In this document: positions 9,285 through 64,000 of the stretch, piece after piece
Numbering within the stretch: the first letter of the stretch is position 1
Layout of the letters: each line of letters begins with the position of its first letter
Position numbers and translations under genes: made by a program
Source of the DNA: Dipteris shenzhenensis
Taxonomy: Eukaryota
Assembly: GCA_047967505.1 (NCBI GenBank)
Contig: CM106538.1
Strand: one strand, 5' to 3'
Length of the DNA stretch: 64,000 nt
The notes under the pieces: model-generated
Seen by the model: the letters and a program-made list of their open reading frames with translations, nothing else
The model's database searches: none
What the model was told of the DNA's origin: nothing

Positions 9285-10115
9285 CTATTTGAAAATCGGG
9301 TTCATGCCGAGAAGCATGTTGTTCCCGTTGGGCAGGTACATGACGTTGGACGTTCTCGCCAAAGTCGCAGCAATCTCTCGTGAGGCTTCAATTCGTCGTA
9401 ACTCAATTAGGCCAGGTCCAGCATGCGCAGTAGCTTCAGATATCATCCTGGCAGACTCACTTTCACCTTCGGCTCTGATGACGGCCGCCCTCATTTCCTG
9501 CTCAGCCTTGGCCACAACAAACTTCGAGCGTTCAGCCTCTTGCTGTGCAACTTGCTTCTGCTCAACAGCCTTCGAAAACTCGGCTCCATAAGAAAGATGT
9601 GTAATGGCTACATCGTCGAGCAGAATATGGAATTCCTTAGCTCTGCGCAGCAGACTCTCCCTCACAAGAGCAGACACAAAGGGGCGCTCAGTCAAAAGCT
9701 GATCAGCATTGAATTGAGCTACCACCGACTTCAAGACCTCATTACCAATTGACGGCAGCACTTTCTCGTTATATTCAAGACCCAACCTCTTGAAGATATC
9801 AGGAAGCATATCAACGTCAGGACGATAAAGAACACGGAGACTCAGATTCACCATCTGCAAGTCCTTGGTCCCCGTAACGGAAGAGACGGAGTGAGCATGA
9901 GTTCGGATGTCAAAAATGAAAGGCCGCTGGAGCCAAGGGATGAGAAAATGGGTGCCTTCACCGACGGTCTTGTCCAAGACACCACGAAAGCGATCGAAGA
10001 TAACAGCCTGCTCGCCGCCATCGACGGTGTAGAGGGAGGCATTGAGGAGAGCACCACCGAAACCCAAAGCGATGGCAGCTTGGGCGACATTCTGGAGGAG
10101 TCTAGGAGCATTCAT
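9285..10115 (-). CDS. PHB3: Prohibitin, type I (PHB3/PHB4-like; SPFH/band-7 mitochondrial inner-membrane protein), 276 aa, CDS without introns
   Basis: Contains [76 protein letters not shown] and [19 protein letters not shown]. The true start is probably the ATG at 10115 (MNAPRLL), not 10430. Confidence 0.97.
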
Positions 10116-11220
10116 TGCAGGGACTACGAGCGCCGGACTTGAGCTTGGAGAGCTTGAGAGCTTGAAGCTCGACAGAGGAGAATGTGGAGAAGTGGCTATG
10201 GCGATAAACAGATCGAAGAAAAACGGTGATAAACAGATGCAAGGCTTGCAGAGCAAGACAACCCCTCTCTCAACCCTAAACACAACATTAGTACTAATTA
10301 ATCTCCCCGTCGTGCACCCTTTGTGGTTTACACGTGCTTCTCTTGGGAGAGGAGGAAAACAAAACACACATACATAAGGAAAACTTTTATAGAGTAGACA
10401 GGATGAACATTGTAAATGAAGTGGCACCATTCGAATGACCTGTTTTGATCAGAAAGTTTGCATAGCGACAAGAATGCCAAAAACCATCCAACAAGAGGGA
10501 TATATGGTTAGGTATGGTCAACGAAAAACTGGCCAATCATTCTTCATAAGCGATACTCCGTTTTGGAACCAAGGCTGCTTGCTTATACAAAAGGAAGCCA
10601 TCAGACAACGAGGTGATGTCTGTGTGAAAGCTCTGACTAATTACTCAGCAAGATGGGGTGGAGATTAATAGGCATGTGAATTTCCTACTGTGATCCCTCC
10701 AATGCCAAATGCAATCTATTCTGAAAAGTATAACGGCTACATGGGAGGTCTCAACCCTGATCGTAAACAAATTGACAGATACGGATCCTCAAATATCTGG
10801 GAGTCTCAATAAAAATAGAACATAGCAATCTCAAGTAAAGTGGAAGTAGCTCGAAGGCTTAGGAGACTTCATAGAACTCGAAAAAGGCACCCAAGCAGGT
10901 GTAGCAACGAAGGAGAAGAATCATTACCAATTCAACTAATTGAGGAAAGCTAAACAAGAGACTGAAAAGGTAAAAGCTAAAAGCGTACAATTTTAGCCAC
11001 CACCACAAATAAATGTGATGAGAAGACCATACTCAAATTTAGAACCAAAATAAAGCAAAATTCTCACCATTAGATTTATACAAAGAGATCAACGTCTAAA
11101 ATTACAACACGTGGCTTAATGAGAGCACAAAAAGGGAAAACTTCCCTCTAGGCTGCCTACCGTAACAAGATGAATGCTCATAAATCATTCATAAGACCTA
11201 GAAAAGAGCGTGGAAAGCTA

Positions 11221-21399: not shown

Positions 21400-24064
21400 G
21401 TGGGTGCATGGGGATACCAAGGACTCATGAGCTGCTAGTGCGTGTGGGTGTTATACCTACCGTACGGACTCACCTAGACTTGGACTTGATGATTAGGTGG
21501 AATACGATGGAGATGAATGCCGAGAAGCAGCATACAATGTCATCAGCCAAGTAGAGCATGCGTTGAGTTTGTGCATCATCCTGGTTGTCAGTTTGGCACC
21601 AACGCTACTGTGTTCCCTTTGATGAATCTCTCTTGGGGTAAGGCACGCAGGTTCTTGTGTGGCTGTAACTGGGGAGGAAACAGGTTCTAGTGGTACCACA
21701 ACCCTTACTGTGGTAGATGGGTTATGCCCAAGTAACACTGCCAGTGCTTTATTGAGTAAAGTGTCCTTTGATAGCGTGCGCACGAGCCTGGAGGAAGGTT
21801 CTTGTGTAACTGACCCACTTTTAGGGGACAGTTCTTGTGTTGCTTCCTCGGGGACTTGGGCAACCTTTTCATTGAGTTGTACTATTCATGGAATCATGGC
21901 ACTCCGTGGGCTTGGGGGCTTGTTCGTCACGCTAGTCTCGAGGGTAGGTTCTTATGGGATTGCATCCATAGTTGACACAGGTTCTTGTGTTGCTACCTTC
22001 TGAACCCCTACGAGTTGGGATCACATATTTGGTGTCGTCAGAAGTTTCTAGACCTAAGCAGTTCGCTTGCCTTGGTAGTAGTCCTAGGATTCCAAGAGCT
22101 TTGTCACAACCCAACGCATGTGAGGCCACTGTGCTTGGAGTGGTGAAATTGGCCCTTGCAGTCCAGGTGATTGGCGGCGTCAAGCTCTTCTTCTAGATGG
22201 GATTGCTTGTGTTGGTGCAGGCCAAGAAAGGATCAAAGACCCTTCCCCTCCTTCGGAATTATAGGGCCGTTGACTTCTTTGAAGTGGCATTGTGTGCAGA
22301 TGATGGCTTCTTGTACCTGTTGTTTGTGACATTTTTGGGTAGGCGGTAGGGGTGGAAGAGTAGCTTGCAGCATGGCCTTGCTGTCACTAAGATTAGAACT
22401 TCGTGCTATCCCGACATGGACTTCCTTTTGAGGTTCAAAGCCAAGAGCGTTGGGGGTTGCTGGGGCCTTAGAATTGCCTTCGTTTAGAATTTCCTTGCCT
22501 TTTGCGGGTGGTGGTACTATGGGGGAGGTGGGATTAACTTCAGAAAGCAGAATTACTGCACTTGTTCAAGCTCTCAGCCAGGCCATTTGCCCTGGGGTAG
22601 TATGGCATCAACTTCCTATGTATGATCATGAATTCACTAGTCAGGATTGCTATAGTTTCATTGAGGAAAGAGTTCCTCGATCACTGACCATTCTAAGGGG
22701 CACCAAACTGTGCGATGACTTGTTTGTATAAAAACTTAGCTATGGATTGCGCATCAGCTTTTCTTGTGGCTAGGCCCTCCACCCATTTGGTGAAATAATA
22801 TGTGGCCAGGATAATGTATTTGACCCTATTCCTCTAGCGGTTGGGCTTATCGGCGGGCTAATAAAGTCTATGCTCCATTTCTCAAAGTGTTGATTGATTA
22901 ATATTCCTGTTAGGGGCATCATGTCCACTTTATGTCAAATTTGCACCCTTTGGCAGGGTTCACATTGCTTGATAAACTCAATTGCATCTCCAAAGAGAGT
23001 TGTCCACCATAGGCTTGCATGCAACACTTTAAGTGACGTAAATTCAATGGTGGGTGAAGTAACCACCTGCTATCCTAGAATGGGCTTCTTCGAGAACATC
23101 GATGGGCTTTTCAAGCACATCGATATATTCATGCTCACATATGCATGTACACATGAGGGCATCGTTGCCCATGCAGTATAGTTGGCCTACAATTAGCTGA
23201 TATGGTGCTACATCCTTGATGAGTTTGTGGGCTTTGTCCCTCTTGAGGGCTTTGTCTAGAGAGGACCCATTTGCAAGGTAGTGGCCTATTTTTGTTGCCC
23301 ATTCCAGAATTATGTCAATGAGGAATAGGGGAGCATCTGAGAGGTCATCCTCAACTCCCGTTGGAGCCTCCCCATTGGGAATCCTTGAGAGGTGGTCGCC
23401 TAGGATGTGGGTCTTTCCTTTACGTACCACGACTGTGAAGTCAAACTCCAAAAGGATTAGCATCCACCTTGTGATGTGTCCCATCATGCAGGGCCAGGGC
23501 TTGTTAACCAAATATGGTAAGGCTCGATTGATCAACAAAAAAGATGAACATGTTGGCTAACAAGTAATGCCTAAACTTCTTAACTGCATAGACCATGGCC
23601 AGGCCTTCCCTCTTTGTTGTTGTGTAATTAACCTCGGCATCATTTAATTGTCGACTAGCAAAGTACACCAGGTAGTCCAGGTTGTACTCCCCTGGTTGGG
23701 CTAACACACATTTGATGGTATTAGGTAGTTCCTCCAACAACACTTGGTTGATTGAAGTTATACAAGGTGGGTGAGGTTGTGGACCCAATATGAGTGCCAT
23801 CAGGTTGGGTGGGGTCGTCAGGGCTAAAGGGGGGTCTTGCTCGATAGATCGGTGAAGGACCCTAGGGAATCGGCATTAGGAGGTGGCGTGGTTTCCCCAT
23901 CTATAGCAGTGTGCACAGTAGAGTGCTTGCCTTGCCCTAAGACAGGGGCACTCATTGGAGGGGTGATTGCTGTTGCATACCCCGCACCAAACATTGTCTC
24001 TCCTAGGAAACAAGTGGGGGTTACTTGGTGTCTCCTTGGAGGTTCCTAGCCTTCCATTACTTGC
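21400..24064 (-). mobile_element. Ty3/Gypsy gag tail, RNase H and integrase remnant (protease and RT deleted)
   Basis: Gag Cys/His fingers (WCGVCNSNHPSNECP, YCAHCYRWGNH), RNase H (VYFASRQLNDAEVNYTTTKREGLAMVYAVKKFRHYLL, RWMLILLEFDFTVVVRKGKTH..DHLSR) and the integrase start (VLEEAHSRIAGGYF). The left boundary is approximate. Confidence 0.9.
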
Positions 24065-25760
24065 CCAGATAGTGGCATCTGTTTGCATTTGAGCTGACAT
24101 GGCATGCTTATTTGGTACTGTAGATAGCATTCTGTATAAGCGTCCTTCCTTGACACCTTTTGTACTAGCTGACATCTTTTGGATTTGTCTCTGATAGTGC
24201 ATTCATCACCATCGAAGATGACTTTGTAATTGTGTTTCGTCTTTTGGCCTACTGACAAAAGGTTCTTGCTGAGCTTCGGAACATAGAGCACATCTTTGAC
24301 TAATCCTTTTGTACCAGTGAAATTGTTCATAGGGATAACACCTATCCCTTGAACCGGATTCGGTGTATTGTCTGCTGTGTAGATGACATTCTTCTGACCT
24401 TCTAATGGTTTCATCTCTGTGAACCATTCCTGATGATTTGTCATATGAGATGATGCACCGCTGTCGATGTACCAAGGATCCTGTTCCACTTGGTCGACTT
24501 GATAATTGTAATCTTCTTTGGGATTGAAATCAGTGTCTAGGTGCATTGTATCAGTCTGATGCAATTCCTCTCTTGTAAGAAACATATTTCCATGTTCATT
24601 TGCAAAATGACTGTGACTAGAATGTCCACCACGATGATTTCCTCTTCCTCGAGAATTCCCTCGATTACTGCTGGATTGATCGCCTTGGTCGTACTGCTTC
24701 TTGCGGCAATCTCTTTCATAGTGTCCAAACTTGTGACAGTAGTTGCACTGAATGTTTGACACATTGGTGGATGCATTCCCTCGACCTTGAAATCTTCCTC
24801 GATTGGAATGATTTCCTCTTTGCTGATTCTGATTTTGCTGAGGATGATGCTGATGTTGATGTTGATGTTGATGCTGACTTTGATTTTGTTGATGATGACC
24901 ACTTTTCTTATATGATCTACCTCTGTTTCTGCCTTTGCCTCTGCTTCTGTCTGAAGCTGTGAATGCCTGATCATTAGAATGACCTTTACGTGCTTGAATG
25001 GCCTGAGTCCTGAGTTCTTCACCAAGTAGGACTGACTGAAGTTCTTCTAGTGTCGGAATTTGCTGTTGGATGGCAATACTCTGGACTAGATTCTCATATC
25101 CCTCTCCTAGTCCGTTCAGAATGACTTGAACCATTTCTGCGGGTTCATAGTCTCTTCTGCTACTGCAAGTTGATTGTTGTAGTCTTTTATGCGGAGTACA
25201 TAAGCATGACCGGTTTCACTACTGTTGCAAAAACTCTGGTTAATTTGGTTTCTCAGGGTGAGAATCCTGGATATGTTCTTGGACTCGTAGAGTGCTGCGA
25301 ACATATCCCATGCTTCTTTTGATGTCTTAACTGTGTTGAGTTGTCCTAGCATGACATCTTGCACATTCTGCTTGATCAGATGATAGGCATACTTGTCTTT
25401 CTTATCCCATTCTGCTTGAGCTCGGGCAATGGCAGGATCTGCTACTGGTGCGAAAACTATTTGTGTAGATGTAGATCCTGATGTAGATTCCATTGCTGGT
25501 GCTGTGACAACAGATGGAGTAGAGCTACTGGTGACTGGATCGGCCAATGGTCTAGGTGTAGACCCATCAACATACTCCCATTTGTCCTGAAGCACAAGAA
25601 TGGTCTCCATTCGGTATTTCCATGTACCGTAATTGGAGTTGTCTAACTTAGCAGATGCCTCCACATTGAGGTTGCTAGTCGACATGGTGCAAAAAATGTA
25701 CTCAAAAAGTGTCCTGAAAATCTCTGTATGAATCAACTGCAAATACACTGAAGATGCCAA
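24065..25760 (-). mobile_element. Ty1/Copia gag (UBN2-type), CCHC zinc knuckle, protease and pre-integrase; truncated
   Basis: KLDNSNYGTWKYRMETIL, CNYCHKFGHYERDC, WYIDSGASSHM, DVLYVPKLSKNLLSVGQ and GRLYRM. Frameshifts near 25125 and 24180. Confidence 0.95.
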
Positions 25761-27619
25761 GTGAAATCTCTGTACCCTCGGTGAAGATAGAACTGCAGTA
25801 TATAAAATCTAATCTGTGTTACAAGGCTTGTGGCAATCATGCCGGGAATAGCCAAGAGGCTTTACAAGGCTGAAAATGATGTGCACGATGTCGTGAGATA
25901 GCCAAATAGGCTTTACAATGGTGGCATGTGTGTGTGAAATCAAATGCTATCTGCCCACTGAATCAATCTGCAATGCCTCTGAAATCTGAAGTCTACTCAC
26001 TGAACTGATGAACGTAAGGTTTCAGGTAATGTAATGATGTGAAATCGGATGTGAGCGTATGGACTGACTCCGAGTAGGTACTAGTCGGGAATTTCGGGCA
26101 TGGCTTAGATTGGCAACTTGGGGAATTCAAAGTGTCCCCTCTATGGCGATCTAGTCTACTCTGATCTAGATCTAAACCAACTGTCGATTGATGAAAGAAT
26201 AGCAAATAATTCCTTTTCTTTTGTTCTTTTTAAGTGCTGGGTCAGATGCGTCGATGTAGAGGCAAATGTGCGTGAAGGAAGTGGTTTTGTCAGCGAGGCT
26301 CAAATGTGAGTATAACTTGCACCGAAATGTGCGCATGATGTAACGAGTGCGTAGAGCATGAAAAAATGAGCGACTTTCCTTTTTGGAGTGCCCTCAAATT
26401 CTTCCTGGATCAAGAGATATGACTTGATCTAGGTGGAGGGGCAAAAGGAGTGCAAATGGTGCTCAGTGATGATGTGTCACTGTGAGTCACATGCTATGAT
26501 GATGTGGCACTGTGCCTAGCAAGAGGTGTGCCTGTGAAGCCTTGTGCTGAGGTGGCAGCTGTGTGCACATGCAGTGTGTGCACAGTGTGCTTGACAAGGG
26601 ACTATGCCTGCAAGGGTCAGTGCTGACTGGACAGCTGAGGTGGCAGTGCTGAGGTGGCACTAGTGATGTGGCACTACTGAGGTGGCAGAGGTGATGTGGT
26701 AGTGATGACATGGCTGATGACATGGCCACAATGACGTGTCAACTGATGTGGGAGCCTACATGGCACTGATGAGCTGGCAGGGTGATGTGGCACAAGTGAC
26801 GTGGCCTGCTGATGTGGCTATCGATGATGACATGGTAGTGGTGATGTGGACTGCTTACATGGTTGATGATGTGGCACTATGGATAAGGGTGCAATCCGAA
26901 TGGAGATACGTGCCATCAAGTGAGCAGCGGGCTAAGGAAGGCCAAGCCTTTTTGTTGAAACGGTCATTGTGCAGCATGGGCTGCGCCTCAAGACCTGCCT
27001 TGTGTAGAGAGCCTTAGAGCTGCTGGAGAGGCTGAGAATCGCAGGAGCCTGTTGATGCGACTATTCTATTAGAGCTTTGCACGTCCTTCCTAGGAGGGGG
27101 GTTGCTCATTGAAGAGCTTGTTAAACGTAGCATTGAGGTTGTGAGCCTTTGCTACAGCTTCCTATGCCTTGTGAAGAAGGAGTCGTAGATAAGAAAGGAG
27201 GCAGCAGTCGTGGAGTCCTTTGACACCTTTGGTACTCCTCACAAGCCAAAACAGCTAGAAATAGTTCTTCAGTGAAAGCTCTCTCAAGTAGACTTGCGGA
27301 AAACTCTTCCTATCTACCCTTCTCTCTGTCTCAGGAGTAGAATCTTGGGGATGTAAGTCTCTCTCTCTCATAAATAAGATCAAATGAAGGAAATCTCAAG
27401 AACTCTCTTTCACAAAAACATCTCTCAAACTCACAAAGAAACAATGAAGTGAATGGAAGAAGATTAACGGAAATCTCTCAATCTCTCATGGACAGAATTC
27501 TCTCAAATGGATGGAAATTCTATCACTCAACGGAAGTGAAAGAATGAACACAAACTGTCAATCTCTCAATCACTCTCTCACACTCTCAAGAATCGCAATG
27601 CCTCAGCAGAAGGCAAGGG

Positions 27620-41299: not shown

Positions 41300-41870
41300 C
41301 ATAGAGTAATTATATTCCTAAGGGCATCAATAGATGACTTGTTCCTTTGAGAGGTTGTGCACATATACATATTCCTTGGTGTACAAATATGTCATTTAAG
41401 TATAAAAATGAACTTATAAATAATGTGAGTAATTATACTCCTAAGAAGTCAATAGATGACTTGTTCTCTTATAAAGGTTTTGCACATATATACCTTCTTA
41501 AAGAAGATGTAAAAGTACATGTTCTTGAAGAAGATGTAAAAAAAAACCCTTTACATGCAAAAAAGAAATCATAAACAAAATCATAAATAATGAGTAGTTA
41601 TGTTACTAAGAACATAAATAGATGACTTTCTTCTCTTGGAGAGGTGGTGTACATATATTTTTACACCTTCTTGATGTAAAAATAAACCCTTTAGGTATAA
41701 AAACAAACTCATAAACAATGTGAGTAGTTGTGCTCCTAAGGACATTGATAGGTGACTTATTCTCTTAGAGAGGAACTGTTCTCATATTTTTACACCTTCT
41801 TGGTGTAAAATAAACCCTATAAGTATAAAATGAAACTCATCAACAATGTGAGTAATTATTTTCCTAATAA
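41300..41870. repeat. Array of 4-5 diverged ~120-165-bp tandem repeats
   Basis: Recurring atagatgactt...ttggtgtaaaa...taagtataaaaa..aaactcataaa.aatgtgagta, with units starting near 41331, 41454, 41619 and 41749. Confidence 0.85.
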
Positions 41871-42096
41871 CATCAAACACTATATTAGTAATTTTGGAAA
41901 AATCCCAAATCCCATTTTTTTAAATCCCAAAAATCAAAGGCGTTTTGGAAGAAAATTAATAGAAAAAATCATATATTTAAATATGTATTTGAGTTTTAAT
42001 TTGGCTAAATATTATATCACTCCAATGAAATATTGACAACACTATATCATTATATTCAAATATAAAAAGTGTTTTGTTTTATGTGGAGGATACATC

Positions 42097-42660
42097 TTAA
42101 AAATTGTACTCACAAAACAACTCCTCTCCTGCATGGATATCTCTAAGAGAGTAGACAACAATAAACCCTAACATATCAGTAGGTAAAACATCCCGTTTGT
42201 CTTCGATCCAAGGTGATACTCTAGGGTCATATACATACATAACATTTGTTCTATCCTTACAATGAATAGAGCTATTGATGTATCTAGCTACGTTACCATA
42301 CAACACATCTCTTACGATGTGTTACGTATCCTCTTTTGGTGTAGTAACATTTGGATCTTCGAGGAGGCCATAGGTCCTAAACCTTGGAAGGTAAGAGCAA
42401 AGAGTAATCCAACTATAGTAATCATACTTTGGGCCATTGAATATCAAAACGTCTTTCTTTGCTTTTACATCCATATGTACAAACAAGCCATAAGCTGCTC
42501 CTGTAATCGATGATGTCTTCACTTCAAATTCAACACGATTGAGCTTGAATATACAAGAAATTGGTATCGGTAGATCTTGATCCCACAAGCCATTCAAATT
42601 AGAATCAAACTGAAGAATTATTGTATTCTTCAATTCTTCCAGCATGTCTTCGAACCCTAT
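42097..42660 (-). pseudogene. SET-domain lysine methyltransferase exon
   Basis: FEVKTSSITGAAYGLFV...KEDT*HIVRDVLYGNVARYINSS...IVVYSLRDIHAGEELFCEYNF*. The two listed ORFs are in one frame split by a single TAA. Acceptor ttttatgcatAG near 42657. Confidence 0.85.
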
Positions 42661-42769
42661 GCATAAAAGAAAAAGAATGATGAATTATTGAATAGTTACA
42701 CATAGATAATGAGAAGGAAAGGAAATTACAAAAATGATGCATCACAAATAAGCAAATAATATGAGTAAT

Positions 42770-43852
42770 TACCATTCTCAAAGATTTATTGCATGTTTAA
42801 TGTAAGTGAAGCTTGTAGTCTTGTTATGTACACTTTGGCAGAAGTATTGATCATAACCCAATTTCAAGGCATACAAACAAGCTTGCATCTCATTCAAAGA
42901 ATTTAGCTGCTTTATCCTCTTCAAGAGATCTAGTTTAGAAGAATCCAAGGTAGCTGGGCATGTTTTGAGCTCTTGTTCTTGGGCTTTTGGTGATTGTTCC
43001 TTATCTGGCTCACAAGCATCTCCCCTTCGATTACTATGTTGGACGATCTCAAAATGACTTGAGCTGGTTGAACTAATCTTTTGGCTTGGAGCAAATTCCT
43101 CCAAGAAGTGTTTTATGTACTTCGTAGTAGTGAATTCCCACTCCAAAATCACTTCTTTGAAATACATATATTGATGATGATTTGTATGTATTGGTTCATT
43201 TCCATAATGATCAAGCTTGATAATATTTCTTATATCTGATGCATCTCTCAATCAGAGGAGATAAGGGAGAAGTTCAACATTCAATATGTCATCAGTCACC
43301 CATGTCAAAAGTATCTGGATATATACCATTTTCTTTCGGGTTTACAAAGCCCTCAAATGGACAATCATCAATAAATAAGGTGTTACTAGGATTAAACTCT
43401 TTCTCATTTGCCCAAATGGCAAGCAAGGGCTTAAACATGCATTGAATGCCTGGCTTGTCCGGTCTATTTAATATCTCTGTAAGTGATTTGTAGAATTGAT
43501 CTTGCCCCATAATTTTGTAGAACGGAAATTGTTTCACTGCAAGCTTCTCCATCAAATGAACCATGTAATTCACATTCTTGATTATCTCATAGTTAACCAT
43601 AGGCACACATAAAGTGCTCAAACAATCTATCCAAGAATTGAACACATCCATTTCGAGCACAATCCATGTTCTCTTATAAATTTATATCCTTTTATGTTTA
43701 TCGGAAGGTTTAGTGGACTTGAGGAGAAAAATTCCATTCAGGTCAAGTACAAGTAATTTCTTTGTTCTCATAGATGGAGAACATTGAATGTGTTCCATTG
43801 AATCATTTGATTTTTCTCTATGTAGTATTTCTATATGCAACGGATTTCCATC
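42770..43852 (-). pseudogene. FCP1/NIF-type HAD phosphatase exon plus linker
   Basis: KKLLVLDLNG, RNGCVQFLDRLFEHF, FNPSNTLFIDDCPFEGFVNPKENGIYPDTF and LLPYLL*LRDASDIR...YGNEPI match the plant NIF (NLI-interacting factor) family pattern. Confidence 0.85.
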
Positions 43853-44529
43853 TGTATCATGGCATGCAAAAGTATCAAAGTGTGAAGTTAGGATTCAATG
43901 AATGTTGTCCATGCTTATATTTAAAAATGTGAGCTTAAATCTACATTATATTCTCTCATTTACATTGACAATGGTAACCTAAGTATTTTGGTGTATTAGA
44001 TTATATCTCCAATCTTCACAAGGGTCTCATCATCAGAGGACACGATTTGTATTTACTAAGTTAAAAAAGCATTGATCATAATCCAAATGCAAATCCGACA
44101 TTACATTTCCATACACAAATCAAAAGTGAATTGTATGTTATATTTCTGAACAAAAGATCGGCTTTACAATCGATCTCAACATCTCATAGTCCACCAAGTG
44201 GGAGATGTTAAGATCGATTATAAAATCGATATTAGTCTTTCATCTTACTCTCATGCTCTTTGTGTGGGAGTTCATAAGATCGATGTTCTTAGCCTCTCAT
44301 ACTAAAAGACAAGATCGGATTCAAAACCGATCATATCCTCTTATTGTTGGTAAAGGATGACAAACTAAGTTCAATAATCATTCTTAGTTACCTAATAATA
44401 TAGCAATTACAAAATCTACATGAACAATTCAATTTTGGAAGCATTAAGAAGTTCCAAAGATGCATTGCAATCCAAAAGATATATTTATATAAATGCCTCT
44501 AAAATCACTGAAGATTTATGATTTTTGAC

Positions 44530-46050
44530 CTACTTTTTTGGATGCGAATATCTACTGGGCCATTTTCTCAATATCCTCAAGGGTTTATTGGTCCTGTACA
44601 CTTGTCAGTCCTGCCAATTATGGCTGAGTTGAAGTCTGCATGTTTGCACCGTGCTATTCCTATCGATTTTTTGTAGTTTCATCCTCTAGGTTTGCCCATA
44701 CTCTCAACTCTTTAGATGCGGAGACTAGATCTAAGCATCTGCCATTCACTTCAATCTCATCTTGATTCCTGGCTACAAATGCAAGTGTCTTTCTCTTTAT
44801 TTTCAATGACTCTATGGTGGCAATTCCCTCTGTGAAGACATAACCAACACATTGATCTAGCCGATAGAAGTACTCAATGAAAGAAGAGATAAAGTTTGCA
44901 TTCTACAAATGTTTGGGGGCTTCCTCCTCATCAATATCTCCACTGTTCTTGGAGTCCTGTTATACAATCCAAAACATACAGATGGCTTGGTCATATTCTT
45001 CTTTAATTGATTTATCATTGCATCACAAGATTCTTTGTAAACCACACCCAAAACAACCAAATATCCAAGAGCATATTTAAACAAAGAATCTTGGGAAGAT
45101 TGTGTCATATGCACCCACTTGATACTTGAATTGCAATTGTAAGCCTTTGATTGCTTCCAATAAATAGGATACTTTTTTTACCAAAACAAAGGCAAGTAAT
45201 CCATATTCAGGTGCTTCGTGTGTTATTTCATTTAGCATTACAAAGAATCTTTCAAAGAAAGACACATTTACACTCTTGCTCCAGTGGTGCCTACGTATCA
45301 AGAACAACTACTCCAATTTGTCATTCTTTTGTGTATCTGTTCACACTCTCTAGTCCCTCTAACTTGCCTCCCACATTTATGGTCTTCCATGGCATTTCAT
45401 TCACACTTTGACTAGAGGTACCAAATTTAGAGTTATGTATCCAAGTAAGGAATGTCAAAGCAGTTTGAGGTAGCATTACATCTGTTGTCTTGTTGGGATT
45501 TAAGCAGTCTTTCAACCACTCGTTGCAATATCCAAATATAGTTTGATACCTATCATCGGGTGATGTCATAAAATAGTTTCATCTCCTCCCAACTCTTACC
45601 TAGATTGACTTGTGACTTTTCCTTGAAGAAAGTAGCAATCTTTGGCTGAAGGACTTTGTCACTTTTCATTTCCCAACACCTTTCATCCATGGTTTTGATG
45701 CTTGATGCCTTGGAACCAGATAAAATCACATTTTTCTCTAAGATTTCATGCTACAAAGTGGATATCATAGAGTTCGCCATGCCCAACAAACATCGGAACA
45801 TTGTCGGTCCTAGTCTTTTAGTGCCCTTTGCTTGATTGATTTCTCCCACTTTATAGAAAGTAGAAATTTGTGTTGTGCTCATCTCTTGGACCGATACTTG
45901 ATCCTTTTGATTTGGCAAATTTCCCTTAACATATCAATGCATGATATCCATCCATCCTTGGAAGAGATCATCTGAACATATAATCATATGAACTTTTTTT
46001 TGGTTGAAACTCTTTCCAAAAGACAAATGCACAGTATCAATAAAGTCGTG
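44530..46050 (-). pseudogene. Large exon: helical region followed by a divergent N6/N4 methyltransferase-like fold
   Basis: YVKGNLPNQK..MFRCLLGM..SWEEMK, then QIGVVVLD, FFERFFVMLNEI..YGLLAFV and NANFISSFIEYFYRLDQCVGYVFTEGIATIESLKIKRKTLAFV. The last segment aligns by eye with the motif X/I/II region of the 12-kb methyltransferase. Confidence 0.5.
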
Positions 46051-46239
46051 CATAACACCAATATAGCATATATGACACATTGCTCTCAAGATCGGTTTAA
46101 AAACCGAGGTTACACAAGGAAGAGAAAGCAGAAACAACAACATGGAATCACATACTTCTCTTGAGATCGGTTTTAAGACCGATCTTGTACAATTAATCTT
46201 TAAATACTTCAAGCCAGCTCCTAAATTGTGTGACCTCGA

Positions 46240-49200
46240 GGACAGCCATAAATATTCATCTATCAATGGATGGGAAGTCAAATCCTTATGCTCAACAAGT
46301 GCTTGCAAGCACATATAACACATCCACTACAACTTTCAAAACTCTTTCACCTTGCCTCTAACAAAACATGTGTGCCTTAGGATCTATGGAGCACTCTAAG
46401 GTGGATGGAACCTATGTGGAGACATGATGAAGAGAGTGCTCATGACATGTACCTCAAGTCAATTAGGTTCCAAGAAGATTAGCTTGGACTCATAAAGAGA
46501 ATCTTGAGATAGTGCAAAGTGCTTGATTTATATTACTTCAAATGAACCTCCCTTTTATAGGTGAGGGTACTTACATCCATATGCTTGCTCACATGTGGGA
46601 TATCTCCTCCATGCCATGTGGTAGCTTTCCCTTTACTCATACCTTTGCTCTACATGTGCTCATGGCACCACAACTCTTAACACCTCCCCTTGGTGCCATG
46701 ATCCTTTGGCTACTGCAAGGTGGTCAGATGTGAGTTAGAAGATCAAATCCTCCCCTGGGTGCTTACATAGCTACTCTCAAGTGGTCAGGTTTGATTTACA
46801 AAATATAGGCAAGGTTGACAAGATTTTTGTTTCTCAATGCTTCATGTTGATGGCGTTTGCTTCTTCGCTTGACGTAGCTGGATGCATGATGCTTTGTTCT
46901 TCCATGTGCCTTAATGCTTTATGTGTGGATGCCATGTTCTGTGCTATGGTCATCTCATGCACTTGTGCTTTTGGCATGCTTATGACAATGATGTGTACAT
47001 TCATGCTTTGCCTTTCCATTTGTTGCAAAGGTCTTACCAATTGATTTATTTCAATATTGGTAGTGTCTAATTGCATACAATGATTCTGACTTGACAGGCA
47101 CATAGAGCTCAAAAAGACGATCATTTTTCCTTTTTGGAGCACATACAAATTCTTCCTGGATTGGAGGCTTATCGAAGTTTCTGTGACGAAGGGAGGCAAT
47201 TAACACTGTATTGGAGAATTTGGGAATCTCCCAAGTCCCACTTTCAAGTAAAGGGTTAAGATTTAACCATGTGGCCAAAACTTGAATCCTAATTTGAAAG
47301 TGGGACTTGGGAGGATTCCCTAATATGATGTTTAGGATGGACTCCACGTTCAAGTAATGGGTTTAAATTTGACCATGTGGCCAATTCTTAACCATATTGG
47401 GAAGTCCCAAATTATTTGAAAATTCCCATATCCCCTAATATAGTGTTAATTGATGATGTGGCATAGGCTGTTCATATGGAGCTTACAAATTATGCTTATC
47501 AAGAAGCTTGTGAGCTTAGGTGGCACTTGGTGATGTGGCACTTTTAACTAACCTTTACCCTAATCATGGTGGGTTGAGTTGACTAGACCAAGGTTAGGTC
47601 ATATCTGCCATGTGGGCATAATCTAACCATAGGCTTAATTAAACCACATGATGAACCCAACCAAACCTTAGCTTAACTACACACGCCTTATGTGCCACGT
47701 GTCCTATGGAAAACCTTGTGAAAGGCATCACTTTTGGAGAAGGTATCTGCCACCGTCGTGACCGCTAGTAGAGGATCAGTCGTGCTGGAGAGAAGACGGG
47801 CTGTGCTTCAATTTGTTGGTGTAGAGAACTTTGTCTATGGGTCTGTAGATGTTGCTGGAGCCTAGAGGCCATAGGCTGGCATTAGTGGCATGGAAGCTGT
47901 GCTGGTGGCGATGGCTGGTGGAGGCTAGAGCTCAGGGAGTCATTCATTAGGAGCATCTTGCCGGACATTTGGCTTAAGCTAGGAAGCGATGGAGCTAGGA
48001 GCCGTTGCTAGTTCCTTGTCTAGAGGAAGGCTACTAGTCGTGAAGTTGGAAGCCTTTGTGAAGAACTTGTAGCTCTTTTGAGCTATAGAAGCCGTTGTGT
48101 GGCGGACGGGCCAGCTTTGCCATAAGCTTGCTGAAGGCCTTGAGGATCTTTGGAGTTGTGGAGGGCTGTAACCGACAGCATTGTGAGATCTTGGTGGACG
48201 AGCTCCTCAGAATCTATTGCAGTAGGTTGTGGTCGATGTCCATGCTTTTCAAGACTGCATGCAAACCTTCGGTCATTTGAGTCATGTTGTTGGAGTTTTG
48301 GCACTGCTATTCATGCACCGTGAGGCTGGATCTAGTCGCTAGAGAGCATTGGTGCATTGCAAAGTTGAAGCTAGCAGATGGCAGGCAAGCTTGATGAAGG
48401 AGTAGCTTGAAGGGTGCCAAAGTTGGGCAGCCGCTTGCTGCTATTCATCGCAAACAATGAATGAGTTGCCTTGAAGGCCAGTGTTGGGCCGTGAGCATTG
48501 TAGCAGTCGAGGGAGATGCCACTTTGGTCATTGGAGAGGCATAGATAGCTTGGTCATGCTGCAGATTCGTCTTGTTGGAGAAGACTTGGCTGAAGCTGGT
48601 GTTCGGCGTCAGGGGCTCGTTGATGGAGGCTTGCTTGCCTTGGAAATTCACTCCTCCCAGTAGCTCAGCCCTTGTTGTTGTCGAGCTACCCAGCTCCCAT
48701 TTTTGACTGTGCTCTCTATAAGTATTGACTCCTTTTGAGTCTCGCATAGCTCATCTCATTAATCCATTCAGGTTGGGGAACTATGGCAGATGACCAGCCT
48801 GTTCTAGAGGCCTCAATGACTGTCGAAACCTCGGCCCATGAAATGCCTCCAAGTGATGGAGTTTCCAAATGGCAGAAGAACTCTCACAATATATCTCTCA
48901 AAGAAAATACTCAAGGGACTCTCTTGCTCTCACAGAATAAAGAACACTCAAGCTCACAATGAATCTCTCATGAAATTGATGGACGGAAAATTTCTCTCAA
49001 GGGACGGAAATTTGTTCTCAATCTAAAACTAAAACTAACCTACGAGAAAAACATGAGCTCCTAAGACATGCCTACAACTAATCTAGGAGACTAGACCTAA
49101 GCTCTGATACCATGACAAAACATGTGTGCCTCAGGATCTATGGAGCACTCTAAGGTGGATGGAACCTATGTGGAGACATGATAAAGAGAGTGCTCATGAC

Positions 49201-50650
49201 ATGTACCTCAAGTCAATTAGGTTCCAAGATAGATTAGCTTGGACTCATAAAGAGAATCTTGAGATAGTGCAACATGCTTGATTTATATTACTTTAGAGGA
49301 ACCTCCCTTTTATAGATGAGGGTACTTACATCCATATGCTTGCTCACATGTGGGATATCTCCTCCATGCCATGTGGCATCTTTCCCTTTACTCATACCTT
49401 TGCTCTACCATGGCACCACAACTTCAACAGCCTCTTGTTACAATTAGAAAATTGTGGATCGAAGAACAAAAACATATATGTTTTTGCATACCTTTCTTTG
49501 CTGGTGGCTAAGTGGGTTTTCTTAATGATAGAGATGGGTTTCTTAATGGTTGTCATACCCATGAAGATATTGATGCATTGTTTTGCCGTCTTTCAGAGCA
49601 ATTGAGGACAAATCATTCTCTCACTCTAGCACATCTTATGAAAACCTTCAACGAGTGAACAGGCTCAAGGCCTGCCCCATTTATGATGATAGAGGTTCCA
49701 GAATTTAAAGGGTTTATTGATGGTTACTCATGTGAACGCCATGATAAACTTATTGGACATTTAAAGCCACTGCATTTTTGTTTTTTCATACAAGATGACA
49801 TTCCAGTAATGTAGTACAAAATGAATCACATGCAAGATCATTGGATGCCAAAGGGTGGTGGCATAGAGTTGTGGAAAAGAGATATTCTTGGAAAACCTTT
49901 GTTGCCAATTGGGGAACCAACAGTGCTTCCAATGTGTGAGTACTTAAAAGATAGTACTCAAGTGGTGAATGGCATAAAGGACTATATAAAATATTGGAAC
50001 AAGCATCGCATTGACAAAGGCTCACTGGATCCTTATTCTATATACATTACGCCAGTGATACGGTATTGGGAAAACATGATCAATGCATTGTTAGAATTTG
50101 CATCAACTATGCAAAGTCAAGATATATGTACAGGCTTTTGGCCATAGACAACACATGCAACAGAATAGAACACCAGCACCGAAAATGAAGGCTTCATGTC
50201 TTTAAAGGCATTGGAAGACCACTACTGTGGTCCACAATGTAACAAGACAAAAGATACATTCCAACCTCTTATAGATGTAAAAAAGGGCGACTTTGTTCTT
50301 GTGAGGCCAAGCGACAATATATATCCAATTTGGTTGGGTGAAGCCGAGTCAGACATTGAATCCAACACTTCCTCTAAAGAATACAACATGGTATTGATAA
50401 AATATTGGGCGCCATGTTCTCTAAGAAGAATGCAAGTGAGGAAGAAGTGTATGCAAATTGTTGGGAGAAATTTTGGATGTGCAATGACAAAGATGCTACA
50501 CGTTGGGAGTAAGCAGACTCAATAGTATGGAGTTGGACACCGAAAGGAGGGAAGAAGCCCAAGAAGATCAAAATTCCACCTACCATGTGTGAGAAAGCAG
50601 AAGCAAGCGTAGAAGGGGCTGATCAAGTAAACGACAAGAGTGCAGATTGA
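46240..50650 (+). mobile_element. Sola1-like DDE transposase relic, split by an LTR insertion
   Basis: Removing 46359-49434 gives KTLSPCLLLQLENCGSKNKNIYVFAYLSLLV..FLMV-HTHEDIDAL, i.e. the LQLDNCxxxNKN...GHTHEDID motif. The C-terminus reads DVKKGDFVLVRP..PIWLG..YWAP. Confidence 0.8.
46359..49429 (-). mobile_element. Complete non-autonomous LTR retroelement (TRIM/LARD-like), 3071 bp
   Basis: LTRs at 46359-46682 and 49113-49429. TSD GCCTC at 46354-46358 and 49430-49434. Met-tRNA PBS at 49100-49112 and PPT complement cctcccct at 46683-46690. No recognisable gag or pol. Confidence 0.92.
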
Positions 50651-51120
50651 GCTAATGCTCAATGGTCTTAATAAGGTTTTGTTTTGTTTAAATAATGGCT
50701 TGTATTGAGTAGTTCAACTCATTGTCTTGAGCACTTTCATGTGTTCAATTCTTGGAAGTTGGCCTTGAGCTGATACTCAATGGTCTTAAGGTTTTGTTTT
50801 CTTTAAATAAGGGCTTGTATTGAGTAGTTCAGCTCATTATCTTCCTATTGGTTGAGCACTTTCATGTGTTCAATTCTTGGAAGTTGGCCCTGCGCTAATA
50901 CTCAATGGTCTTAAGGTTTTGTTTTCTTTAAATAAGGGCTTGTATTGAGTAGTTCAGCTCATTGTCTTCCTATTGGTTGAATGTGTAATAATTATCATTG
51001 ACAATGCCATGATGATGACAACAAGCTTAGCTTCAGCTCATTGTCTTCCTATTGGTTGAATGCGTGACAATTACCATTGACAATGTCATGATGATGATAA
51101 CAAGCTTAGCTTCACTTTGG
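50650..51120. repeat. Tandem repeats downstream of the Sola1-like transposase (three ~120-bp units, then two ~78-bp units)
   Basis: ctcaatggtctta..ggttttgttt..tttaaataa..gcttgtattgagtagttca occurs three times. Confidence 0.85.
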
Positions 51121-54100
51121 TCATTTCTTTAAACAAATGGCGTTTATATCTTTACACCAACTATTATATAAATGTGTTGATAATTCAACAAAGTTAACTC
51201 TCTTGTATGGCATTGCAATGTTAAATTTGAGCTTTTCATTGTCTATTGGAATGTTTTTCAAGTTTTCATTGTCAAATACTAAATAATTTAAGGTGAGTTA
51301 TTGTAGGTGGCTTGTGCAATCATGTTGCAATTGAAGAAGATTTTTGAGTTTACACAACAAATACTTCATTCCCAAAGTTAATGAGACATCTCACTTATTT
51401 TCTCATTAAAATGGCATCAATGAGATACATAAAGATCATATGCATCATTCCCAAAATTAATGAAACACTCTAAATTAATCAATGTAAAATAACAAAACCA
51501 AAATTAATAGAATTTGACATTCTTAGTCTAAGAGACACTACAGATGCAACAACCATTTCCCAAAATTAATGAAACAATGGACACAGCAACAAACTAAAGA
51601 TCCACAATGTGACTATGTATGAAATAAGAGATCCATTATGGTTGAGCCAAGATGAAGATGGGTTAGAAAGATGAGAAGAGTATGAGGAAGGTGTCCAAAA
51701 ATGGGAGAGTACATGTAAGGTTCTCTCTCCCAATTTCATTTTCCCAAAATTACTAATACCGTGTTATCAATAGACATGACTTGTTTCTCTTAAAGAGATG
51801 CTATGCTTATACACCTACTTGGTGTAAAAATACATCCTTTAAGGTATAAAAATAAACTCATAAACAATGTTCATACACATTAATGAGAGAAAATAGATCA
51901 AAATAAGCTCATAAGAGTTGTTTATATACATTTTTAAGAGCACAGAGATCAAAACAATCTCATAAAAAATATACATACACATTAATGAGAGATAAAAAGT
52001 GATTGGTTTATTTTGAAATTTGTTTAATATGAAATTCTAGACCCAAGTTCTTGAGTACTAAGTTCTTGGCTACCATACTCATGACTTATAGGCTCCTCTA
52101 GAATAGTCTTGGAGGTTTGACAAGGATCATTAGTGCATGATATAGTTAAGACTTCCTTACTTGCCCTACTTTCTCCACTAACATGATTGTTTCATCTTGT
52201 CTACAAGGTTTTAGGTTTAGGCTCATCATTACCTCCTTTAGATAATGATTTCTTGATCGTCTCACCTCCTCTAGTCTTCTGTGAGGCCCACTACCTCTTA
52301 TAGGTAATGCTTCCTTCCTTACCCCACCTTTCCACATCCCCATCCTTCAAAAGTGGATTTGGTTACCTTTATGCGTATTAATTTCTCTCTTCCCATTGCT
52401 ATAGGCTTCCCTTTCCCTTTTATGGAAACATCATGGATTAATTCTTGCCTTTGGCCTTCTTGTATGACAAGTGGAATCTCCTTGACTCTTTCTAGTACTC
52501 AATCCCCATGCATTTTTATGTGCATTTCTATTAATTGCTCCACACGATTTAGCTAAGAAGGTAAGTATGGGTCTGTAAAACAAGGATCTAAGGCGTGGAG
52601 TATACTTCCAACTGAAGGAAAAAGAATCGAAAGTGTGGAGAATGTCAAAATCAATGTTCAAGTGTAGAAGAAGTGTATCTTTGAAAAGAGATTTAGGGGG
52701 AATTTTAGTTAAAATTTTGTTTGAATAAAGAACATGAAAGTACTTCGAACTTTTTTCCTTTGGAATTGACTGAAAAAGAAATAATGCATTGTTGAGTAAT
52801 TTGGTGGTACATACCTTGGGAACGTCAAAGGGAGTGATTTGCAAAAGCCAAGAAGTTAGAGACGATCAATGTTTAGCCCAGTCAATGGAATAGTGTGAGG
52901 TATCATCATTATCTGGTGTTTTTCTTTTGAGAGGAGAGGTGCTGAAAGATTTCAGTTGGGAAGCTTTAATATGAGAGGCAAGGGAAGGGTTGATGAGCAG
53001 GGAATAAGGGATAGATTTTTGGAATTTAGGGGTTTATTTTGGGGGGGAACTACGTCTTGTTTTGGGTGGAAGAGGTTGAGTTTAGCAGTAGAGGATAGGG
53101 AAAGAATGTTAAGGGCTAGGGAGGGACCTGGGAGGTTGAGAAAGGAAGAGGGGAGGGAGTAGTCAGTGGAGCGGGAAAGGGAATTTGCTGTTTCAAGGAG
53201 GAGGATCCTAAAGTGATAAAAGGTGACAAGGGAGAAGATTACCTCTTTAGGTAATTGCGACATCTAGTTTAAGAAGGACAAGAATTTGTCTTGTAAGGAG
53301 CCAAAAGGGGAAGAGATATCTAAATGGTTATGTACTAGACAACATGATCAAACTAGAGGATAGAGCATTTGCAGGACATGTTCATCTTCTTAATGAGATA
53401 GGTAAACTTTATGTAAGGCATGAAGATATTCCAACAATTCTTGACATAATAATTGTCATCTTTGTTTAAAGAGCTAGCATCATTATGAGTGGCACCTTTT
53501 GAGCAAAAGAAAACCTCCTTGGGGAGGCCACATTTAGAATGGCCAATAGAGCTTAGAAAAAAGTGGGTGTTGAAGAAGTAATTTGAGTTAGGATGTTAAC
53601 TCCCCTGATAGGCATCTTCTTTGCATTGATCCACCTCTTTTGATGAGAGGTTACAAATGAAGGCAAGGGATTGAATGGAAAAGGGTGCAAGAGAGCTGAG
53701 GTTCTCAAGACACCAAATCTTATGATCAACAATGGGAGCTTTCATTTCTATGTGTCTAAGAGAAAGAAGGGGCACATAGGAAGCAAAATTATTGAGCTCT
53801 CTACTGTCAAGGGGCTTAGGTGTTTGTGAGAGACATTGAGAGAGGGTTTTGAAAGAAGCCTTGTCTTTGGGGGAGAAGAGATCAAGATTAATAAAGCTAT
53901 GAAAACTAGTGTTTAAAGGGGATAAACCAATAGGGATGGGGAGGGGGAAGGCACCATTGAGAATAAGGATGTCATTTGCAAGGCCATATGATACTCATTC
54001 AAAGTACTAGTGTCATTGAGATTGATAGTGGCTAGGTTTGAGGCTTTTTCAAGTCTGGCAAAAGCGCCATCACTTTCGCTTTGTGAGAATTTAAGAAGTT

Positions 54101-63046: not shown

Positions 63047-64000
63047 TGTTGAGATATGGTGCCATGAGCACATATTAGAGGCTAAGGTATGGTATAGGAA
63101 AGAATCAAAGTAGCCACCTGAGGATGTGGACTACATTATGTGGAGATGTGGATCAAGGATATCCACAAGGAGAGATGTCAATCAGAGGATCCCACTAGTG
63201 TTGATTATTCTAAGGGCACTCTCTATATAAGAGGCCTATCATATATTGTTGAGTAGAAGAAATGCACATACACTCAAGATTCTATTTATGAGTCCAAGCT
63301 AATCTATCTTGGAACCTAATTGACTTGATATACATGCCATGAACACTCTCTTCATCATGTTTACACATAGGTTCCATCCACCTTAGAGCGCTCTCCATAG
63401 ATCTGGAGGCACACATATTTTGTCATGGTATTAGCACCAGATGCTCCCACTCCCTTCATGAGTAGCAAGCCCTCCGCTGCAAGGCATCTTCATTTTTTCT
63501 CCACTTCTTCTTATAGAGCTCATCTTCTTTTTCGTTTTGGTTAAGGAAGCACTCCATTTCACTTCATGGAGATCTAGCTATGGTATTATAAATTATGTGG
63601 GTTTCCTTGAGTAATTTCTTGAGTTTACAATGAGAAACACATTTTATTCTCAACTTTTGTGAGTCCATTCTTTGAGAGAGAGTTCTCAGGTTCTTTGTGA
63701 GAGTATAGTTTCTCTGCTCTACCTCTAAGAGAATGCAAGTTTGCTTTTTTAGAAACTCTTAAGGCCAAATTTCTTTCAAAGATAGCCTTCAAATCGGCAA
63801 CGGTAGCCCAGAGGTGATCAAGCAGCTCCCTGTAGGGCTACACGGCTAGCCATCTTTAGTTAGGCTACACGGTTAGCCATCTTTAGTCAGGTTACCCATG
63901 GCGACTTAGCTGTGGTAGACTCTAGATTCACAAAGCCTCGATGGCCTCCCCGACCTACAAACTCCATGCTAATGGGCTCACAAGATGACTCATGCTCCAT
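63047..64000 (+). mobile_element. 5' LTR (63047-63425), PBS and start of an element related to the 46.4-49.4 kb LTR family
   Basis: 63270-63425 is the reverse complement of the R/U5 part of the 49113 LTR. It ends in tttgtca and is followed by tggtattag. Confidence 0.85.

Follow-up and report, generated by a model that had tools for sequence, protein, structure and literature searches.

The question raised by this locus is whether a transposon in the window, the 64,000-nucleotide stretch of Dipteris shenzhenensis contig CM106538.1 analysed here, encodes one protein that joins a DNA-methylase-like domain, a phosphatase-like NIF domain and a SET domain, and what such a gene might do for the element that carries it. 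A preliminary description, made from the sequence letters alone, had read a run of collinear minus-strand exons as a single multi-exon "epigenetic toolkit" gene next to a Sola1-like transposase, within a candidate element at 42097-50650. The analysis reported here points to a different arrangement, in which a decayed transposon carries an accessory gene for a methylase-like plus NIF protein that may act as a non-catalytic adaptor, and the SET frame is a separate passenger that probably came later. As a whole this reading is held with moderate confidence, somewhat better than even. Few transposons bring along chromatin or DNA-modification genes of their own, and those that do inform on the arms race with host silencing.

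The span in the preliminary description was too short, as inverted termini and a 4-bp duplication place the element at 41876-51765 (9,890 bp). The two terminal arms are identical at 25 of 28 positions, and a search of the whole 64-kb window found their terminal pattern at the two ends of the element only, where 0 occurrences would be expected by chance. The tetranucleotide ATCA stands on both sides of the element, at 41872-41875 on the left and directly beyond the right terminus (Table 1). When the two flanks were joined minus one ATCA, as in an empty site, a unit of the flanking repeat array was restored and aligned across the junction to intact units. Because the repeat unit is restored and ATCA is found on both flanks, the element runs from 41876 to 51765 and has a 4-bp target duplication. 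The insertion-target array of roughly 130-bp repeats covers 41300-41875 and 51766-52000, with related 51-bp units at 51846-51995.

Filler DNA inside the 9.9-kb element holds a nested element of 246 bp whose termini are of the same type, as found by inverted-pair search, pattern match and alignment. Both complete insertions of the family (2/2) have 4-bp duplications, ATCA and AATT. Approximately 45 nt from the left end of the window element are conserved in alignment with the ends of this nested miniature inverted-repeat transposable element and with the end of a related copy on another contig, L013. A cut-and-paste DNA transposon, with termini that start AACAC and with 4-bp duplications, inserted once at 41876-51765, and this insertion is old and dead. 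The proposal that a large DNA transposon carries the gene therefore holds, given the inverted termini, the duplication, the restored empty site and the similar terminus that adjoins the gene in L013.

The accessory gene occupies the minus strand from 46.0 to 42.78 kb. Four or more in-frame stops and five or more frame changes make it a pseudogene, in agreement with the earlier view of a dead copy. By tblastn, residues 440-1009 of the intact relative P0056 aligned with window positions 46017 to 43138, and P0006 and P0001 extended the alignment to 42847, whereas the first ~440 residues of the intact relatives had no tblastn counterpart in the window. Protein identity between the window and these relatives is 26-36%, rising to 50% over the short segment 43293-43138. 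The helical and methylase-like stretch (46017-44687) of the preliminary description is collinear with and homologous to intact proteins. The last exon contains the NIF domain at about 43765-43138, whose motif, LVLDLNG, is at 43753-43733, followed by a tail in which an LGY motif is conserved; the gene stop is TGA 42780-42778. Lesions in this exon are TAA 43681, TGA 43252 and frame changes near 43660-43580 and near 43296.

A phmmer search with the 43292-43681 stretch gave 39 matches (best E 2e-17), and tblastn of the NIF stretch against the relatives gave E values of 1e-27 to 4e-38. The closest long relatives are Adiantum nelumboides proteins that the source names "hypothetical proteins". Thirteen named A. 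nelumboides proteins are 84-100% identical to P0003, with 12 on different contigs and one without a contig record, which makes the relatives multi-copy and not single-copy host genes. The members of a second subfamily (P0006, P0080, P0021) show about 33% identity, and many Adiantum copies and two deep subfamilies have kept long reading frames open, the longest of 1125 aa. The relatives share one layout: an N-terminal region, a helical region (helices at residues 64-194 in the P0045 model, pLDDT about 70-88), a middle alpha/beta domain, an acidic linker, the NIF domain and a short LGY tail. The many apparently intact copies in a fern genome should lend themselves to expression and assay, and the value of the dead window copy lies in the element ends, the target duplication and the link to a transposase.

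Contig L013, a 7.6-kb contig from a scan of metagenome contigs, carries the whole accessory gene in three exons. Its two GT-AG introns are about 95 nt and 1.7 kb long, and the second lies between the linker and the NIF exon. An intron from 44533 to 43852, as suggested in the preliminary description, is plausible, as the second L013 intron is at the equivalent place. L013 also has a terminus 1.2 kb past the gene stop, which aligns over ~45 nt with the window termini in the expected orientation. Because the same terminus adjoins the gene in two genomes whose proteins are only ~30% identical, the accessory gene is part of what the transposon family carries and does not lie there by chance. By sequence comparison, the gene thus belongs to a transposon family of at least two plant genomes. 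As a separate observation, a CCHC zinc knuckle (Pfam zf-CCHC_3, E 2e-4) was found at L013 7400-7579, just outside the terminus, and this copy probably sits in or beside a retrotransposon.

The NIF domain is evident in the intact relatives, where Pfam reports it at E 1e-14 to 1e-17 (53-62 bits, cut-off 21.8), and it is the same domain as in the FCP1/SCP1-type phosphatases (PF03031) of the C-terminal domain (CTD) of RNA polymerase II (Pol II). The window copy, read through from 43292 to 43894, gave a weak match below the cut-off (E 0.021, 14.9 bits vs 21.8). The FCP1/NIF assignment in the preliminary description nevertheless stands, since phmmer and tblastn show the window stretch to be clearly homologous to NIF-bearing proteins. 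A family profile compared with PDB sequences gave a weak match to human SCP1 (E 0.18). The catalytic motif of NIF/HAD phosphatases is DxDx(T/V). None of the 34 relatives spanning this position has the canonical DxDxT; 28 have DxNG and 6 have SLCG, and the window has LDLNG. Fern-type proteins differ from FCP1 and SCP1 in these motifs and in having the NIF domain fused behind a methylase-like domain. The SLCG subfamily has lost the nucleophile, yet it is multi-copy and has long open frames. In that subfamily the NIF domain therefore does not carry out ordinary phosphatase catalysis, if the usual HAD chemistry applies. The presence of DxNG or SLCG in 34/34 relatives argues against an ordinary CTD phosphatase.

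The middle domain likely descends from a beta-class DNA methylase, a part of the reading in which confidence is fairly high. With hhalign, the fern domain was compared with 12 methylases of PF01555, of which 11 are phage enzymes and one is E. coli YhdJ. This comparison gave a score of 33.6 (P 3.6e-4), collinear over 209 columns, which was reached by 0/150 column shuffles (maximum 23.5) and 0/150 eight-column block shuffles (maximum 30.9). The alignment pairs the D of VLDAAH with that of DPPY, and VVLDVFACG with VLDPFxGSG. A protein-language-model feature search with P0045 residues 198-432 placed PF01555 clusters in 22 of 30 matches (score 0.93, 181/256 features). The best long fold matches of the P0045 model are beta-class or MT-A70 enzymes, namely M.MboIIA (Z 6.0, 143 residues), CcrM (5.7, 157), MTA1 (5.7), M.PvuII (5.3) and M.RsrI (5.1), although all of these, the beta-class matches at Z 5.1-6.0 over 134-161 residues included, are below the level that can be trusted.

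The catalytic tetrapeptide of PF01555 (motif IV) is [DNS]PP[YFW]. In its place the fern-type domain has D[AT][AT]H, as DAAH and DTTH in the relatives and DT*A in the window, where the region reads IGVVVLDT* near 45315-45294. Motif I is DVFACGLASK or DIFSLGYGTK in the relatives and YVFTEGIAT in the window (within CVGYVFTEGIAT, near 44860-44760), with F and one G kept and the first G lost. Motif IV precedes motif I, which is the permuted order of PF01555. The likeness to the beta-class methylases of that family (M.MboIIA, CcrM, M.PvuII, M.RsrI, E. coli YhdJ and the phage enzymes) thus consists of the same collinear order, IV first and I last, with GxxLE...VDLIxxD at the front and a VLDxFxG...K.IGiE-like stretch at the back. 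The differences are D[AT][AT]H, the missing first glycine of motif I, the lack of a Pfam match and the setting, which is an 1100-aa eukaryotic, intron-bearing, transposon-borne protein. The earlier assignment of the 44.7-45.3 kb part as beta-class methylase-like is borne out by hhalign, the feature search and weak fold matches, with no support from Pfam, and its remark that clear catalytic motifs are lacking there was correct.

Several results weigh against the reading proposed here, most of them concerning the middle domain. Pfam found no PF01555 match in the window frames or in 5 intact relatives, even at E <= 10, and the hhalign probability for the methylase comparison was only 37%. The AlphaFold model of P0045 is poor (pLDDT 51.5), and its fold matches all stay below Z 8; the highest, at Z 7.0, is to a small alpha/beta protein that is unrelated. 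Foldseek returned nothing for this model at E <= 1e-3 (best E 6e-3). L013 has no room for a transposase, and it is the single decayed, rearranged copy in the window that links the accessory gene with a transposase of the DUF7869 type. Two parts of the middle domain do not vary between subfamilies, namely the D and H of D[AT][AT]H and the motif I core D-x-F-x-x-G, so that a divergent active enzyme keeps some probability. Finally, the binding role of the protein is something that we infer purely from the pattern of conservation. Further searches were negative: the family profile found no methylase among PDB sequences and P0056 alone found nothing there, tblastn of P0044 against phages gave no match, and a word-based protein search with the 44857-45177 frame found nothing.

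The adaptor account starts from two facts. Canonical catalytic residues are missing from each of the enzyme-like domains, and even so the sequence, the position and the open frame of these domains have been kept between deep subfamilies; for this reason an adaptor or binding role is proposed. The accessory protein would consist of the helical region, the methylase-derived domain, the acidic linker and the FCP1/SCP-type NIF HAD domain, and would act as a non-catalytic adaptor. DNA would be held by its methylase-like fold and a phosphorylated partner, for example the Pol II CTD, by its NIF-like fold, and together the two might help transcription or transposition of the element. This binding role is a tentative part of the overall reading, and we would put it at a little less than even. 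The gene may also have an anti-silencing role. The same conserved residues could instead mean that the protein is a divergent N6-adenine/N4-cytosine DNA methylase, a phosphatase or both, which marks the DNA of the element or acts on Pol II to escape silencing. The D and H of the tetrapeptide and the motif I core D-x-F-x-x-G-x-x-[ST]-K are kept between subfamilies that are only ~33% identical, the phage reference enzymes of PF01555 also vary the tetrapeptide (DIPY, DILY), and the NIF nucleophile Asp is kept in 28/34 relatives. However, PP[YFW] is found in no member, the first glycine of G-x-G is lost, the HAD Asp+2 position is Asn or Cys in 34/34, and the intact, multi-copy SLCG subfamily does without even the nucleophile, so that an active enzyme is unlikely. 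A more far-reaching version would be a long-lived fern DNA transposon family in which a functional passenger joins a bacterial or phage-derived methylase domain to a CTD-phosphatase-like domain, with a SET domain beside it in some lineages. In that version the passenger would be a divergent writer of N6-methyladenine or N4-methylcytosine, or a DNA-anchored trap for the phosphorylated CTD, and would steer the chromatin or transcription of the element; we consider this quite unlikely.

The SET domain is real, as the preliminary description had it. Pfam SET matched 42097-42321 on the minus strand at E 3.3e-7 (31.1 bits, cut-off 22.4) and the whole frame, read through its TAA, at E 7.8e-7 (29.9 bits), in each case over the C-terminal half of the profile; a word-based protein search with the SET stretch, which covered longer proteins only, found nothing. 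Hallmark motifs of SET domains are NH(S/C) and the ELxxDY type. The one decayed copy has YINSSIH, with Ser for His, and GEELFCEY, with the Tyr present. The frame lies 94 nt downstream of the accessory gene stop and 193 nt from the terminus. The idea that it is the last part of a single helical, methylase-like, NIF and SET gene fits the collinear order of all parts on the minus strand of one element and the GT and AG dinucleotides in the 94-nt AT-rich spacer, as well as the similar decay of the two parts (1 lesion in 196 codons of SET vs about 9 in about 1100 codons of the accessory gene). However, the proteins of three subfamilies of relatives stop at most a few residues away from the window TGA, none of the 58 relatives scanned (10 + 10 + 38) has a SET domain, and in L013 no SET domain was found in any frame of the 1.2 kb from stop to terminus (tblastn with the window SET frames, best E 0.23; longest open stretch 57 aa). 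The GT-AG junction proposed near 42772 fails as well, since this donor comes only after the stop codon, and none of the AG acceptors would give an in-frame join to SET. A single toolkit gene is therefore very unlikely. Because the relatives end at the TGA, the 58 relatives and L013 lack SET and no in-frame join exists, the SET frame, as judged from these sequences, is a separate open reading frame or lineage-specific addition of the window lineage only. It would be a second passenger acquired later, with host capture and transfer from another element as candidate origins. Since it has decayed about as much as the accessory gene, the window copy probably carried it already at insertion.

Both the accessory gene and the SET frame could also be captured host fragments with no role for the element (Pack-type transduplication). 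Host fragments are common cargo of DNA transposons, the SET frame is confined to the window lineage, and DxNG NIF proteins that resemble host genes do exist (P0019, P0025, P0027, P0029). Against this, the accessory gene keeps its position beside the same terminus in two genomes at a protein identity of 26-36%, retains its introns in L013 and has open frames of up to 1125 aa in many Adiantum copies and two deep subfamilies. Host capture of both parts is given even less weight than the single gene.

Transposon-borne chromatin genes are already established, and what this analysis adds is the fusion of methylase-derived and CTD-phosphatase-derived domains in a plant transposon family. A passage in PMC12730594, citing Kojima and Jurka 2014, mentions Phytophthora transposons of the HarbingerS and MuDR families that carry SET genes, and the same source mentions TET/JBP genes in fungal DNA transposons and the VANDAL anti-silencing protein. 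The Phytophthora elements are like the window element in having a SET frame inside a cut-and-paste transposon. They differ in that the window element has DUF7869, a 4-bp duplication and a plant host, and its SET frame adjoins a larger accessory gene and is missing from the related L013 element. With TET/JBP and VANDAL the common feature is a transposon family that keeps an accessory gene of chromatin or DNA-modification ancestry, and there are no domains in common with the fern-type accessory protein. A literature search found no methylase-like plus NIF fusion, in transposons or elsewhere, though Repbase Reports or supplements may hold descriptions of the family, and it found no paper joining a DNA transposon, a SET domain, FCP1 and a transposase.

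Table 1. Coordinates of the transposon, its genes and its left flank in the window.
Feature	Position	Strand	Remarks
Left flank	41300-41875		Array of roughly 130-bp repeats; element inserted into array
Left terminal inverted repeat	41876-41903	+	Starts AACAC; repeat search, inverted pair, 28 nt, 89%
SET-domain open frame, 196 codons	42097-42684	-	One TAA at 42322-42324; possible ATG at 42648; Pfam SET
Last exon of accessory gene, NIF/FCP1-like HAD domain and C-terminal tail	42778-43894	-	phmmer; tblastn with P0001, P0006, P0042; Pfam NIF E 0.021
Linker and probable intron	43895-44686	-	Gap between tblastn segments; same position as the 1.7-kb intron of L013
Beta-class N6/N4 DNA-methylase-like domain, decayed	44687-45400	-	tblastn to P0051, P0006, P0042; hhalign, feature search and fold matches on the domain of relatives
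Helical region of accessory gene	45401-46017	-	Stop near 45750, frame change near 45557; tblastn
Duplicate of transposase-gene stretch 49115-49434	46361-46686	+	326 bp, 94% identical; blastn, alignment
Higher-GC filler, 2.4 kb	46687-49114		Composition; no Pfam match in six frames
Nested non-autonomous element, 246 bp	47202-47447	+	Same kind of termini; AATT at 47198-47201 and 47448-47451
Transposase gene remnant	49115-50650	+	DUF7869 part at 49429-49827, then C-terminal region to about 50650
Subterminal tandem repeats, units about 120 bp and 79 bp	50647-51110		Inside element; repeat search, blastn
Right terminal inverted repeat	51738-51765	-	Followed by ATCA at 51766-51769, then flanking repeat unit resumes

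Transposase-like open frames on the plus strand had been proposed, and these were recovered as a frameshifted DUF7869 (PF25273) stretch that lies head-to-head with the accessory gene in the element. The DUF7869 matches exceed the cut-off of 26 bits, with scores of 38.7, 33.7 and 40.2 (E 1e-9, 3.4e-8 and 3.5e-10), and span positions 60-189 of the 192-position profile, split over two frames by a frameshift near 49545, with the motifs LENCGSKNKN and GCHTHEDID. The C-terminal part of the transposase alone is recognisable, and the N-terminal part is missing or displaced. Because a stretch of the transposase gene is duplicated around the 2.4-kb filler, the window copy has been rearranged as well as mutated. 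The repeat pair at 46361 and 49115 was also considered as long terminal repeats (LTRs), a reading that was rejected as the right copy continues into DUF7869 coding sequence and there are no defined LTR ends. A third fragment of ~160 nt at 63273-63434 on the minus strand is 90% identical to the start of the duplicated stretch (46361 / 49104) and is probably a remnant of another family copy near the end of the window. Just downstream of DUF7869, at 49815-50147 on the plus strand, Pfam gave a sub-threshold rve_2 match (E 0.003, 18.1 bits vs 22), which is probably due to chance, though integrase-like transposases (Ginger) also make 4-bp duplications.

As for the superfamily, Sola elements are said to have been described by Bao et al. 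in 2009 as making 4-bp target duplications, and the duplication of the window element agrees with this feature; on the side of the transposase, the comparison was with Pfam DUF7869 alone. A literature search found no paper mentioning DUF7869. The window element is also large, as Sola1 elements are. According to a passage in PMC10294476, few DNA transposons of bivalves are as long as Sola1, with its mean of 5.4 kb, and a table in PMC6890710 lists 'Sola' repeats for the genome of the fern Ceratopteris. A passage in PMC10045372 gives 4-bp duplications as typical of Ginger1, piggyBac and AcademX too.

The N-terminal region of the intact relatives was examined in P0054 (residues 236-412) and the equivalent part of P0056 and P0021. 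The nearest clusters in the feature search were DUF3723 (0.97, 199/256 features), from Ascomycota and Cnidaria, a family that we take to be an accessory gene family of fungal Starship elements. Pfam found neither DUF3723 nor ParB in the N-terminal region of the relatives, and the AlphaFold model of this region of P0054 was too poor to search (pLDDT 35.3). A ParB-like N-terminus was considered and rejected, as it had only motifs read by eye and one ParB_N feature match at rank 29 (0.91), with DUF3723 at the top.

Hairpin motifs of the form AGATCGG-(6 nt)-CCGATCT occur on the minus strand at 44155-44321 and 46089-46173. The hairpin core AANCCGATCT is present 4 times in the window, where 0.31 would be expected, and 4/4 copies lie inside the accessory-gene region, with imperfect copies visible near the 4 exact ones. 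Tiny insertions, footprints and putative protein-binding sites are candidate explanations.

The DNA of the window is AT-rich and plant-like. Outside the element, gag and Pol beta-barrel domains of a copia-type retrotransposon were found at 24046-25808 on the minus strand (E 8e-26 and 5e-14). An uninterrupted Band_7/SPFH open frame of 387 aa lies at 9285-10448 on the minus strand (E 3e-27) and could represent a retrocopy or a host gene without introns.

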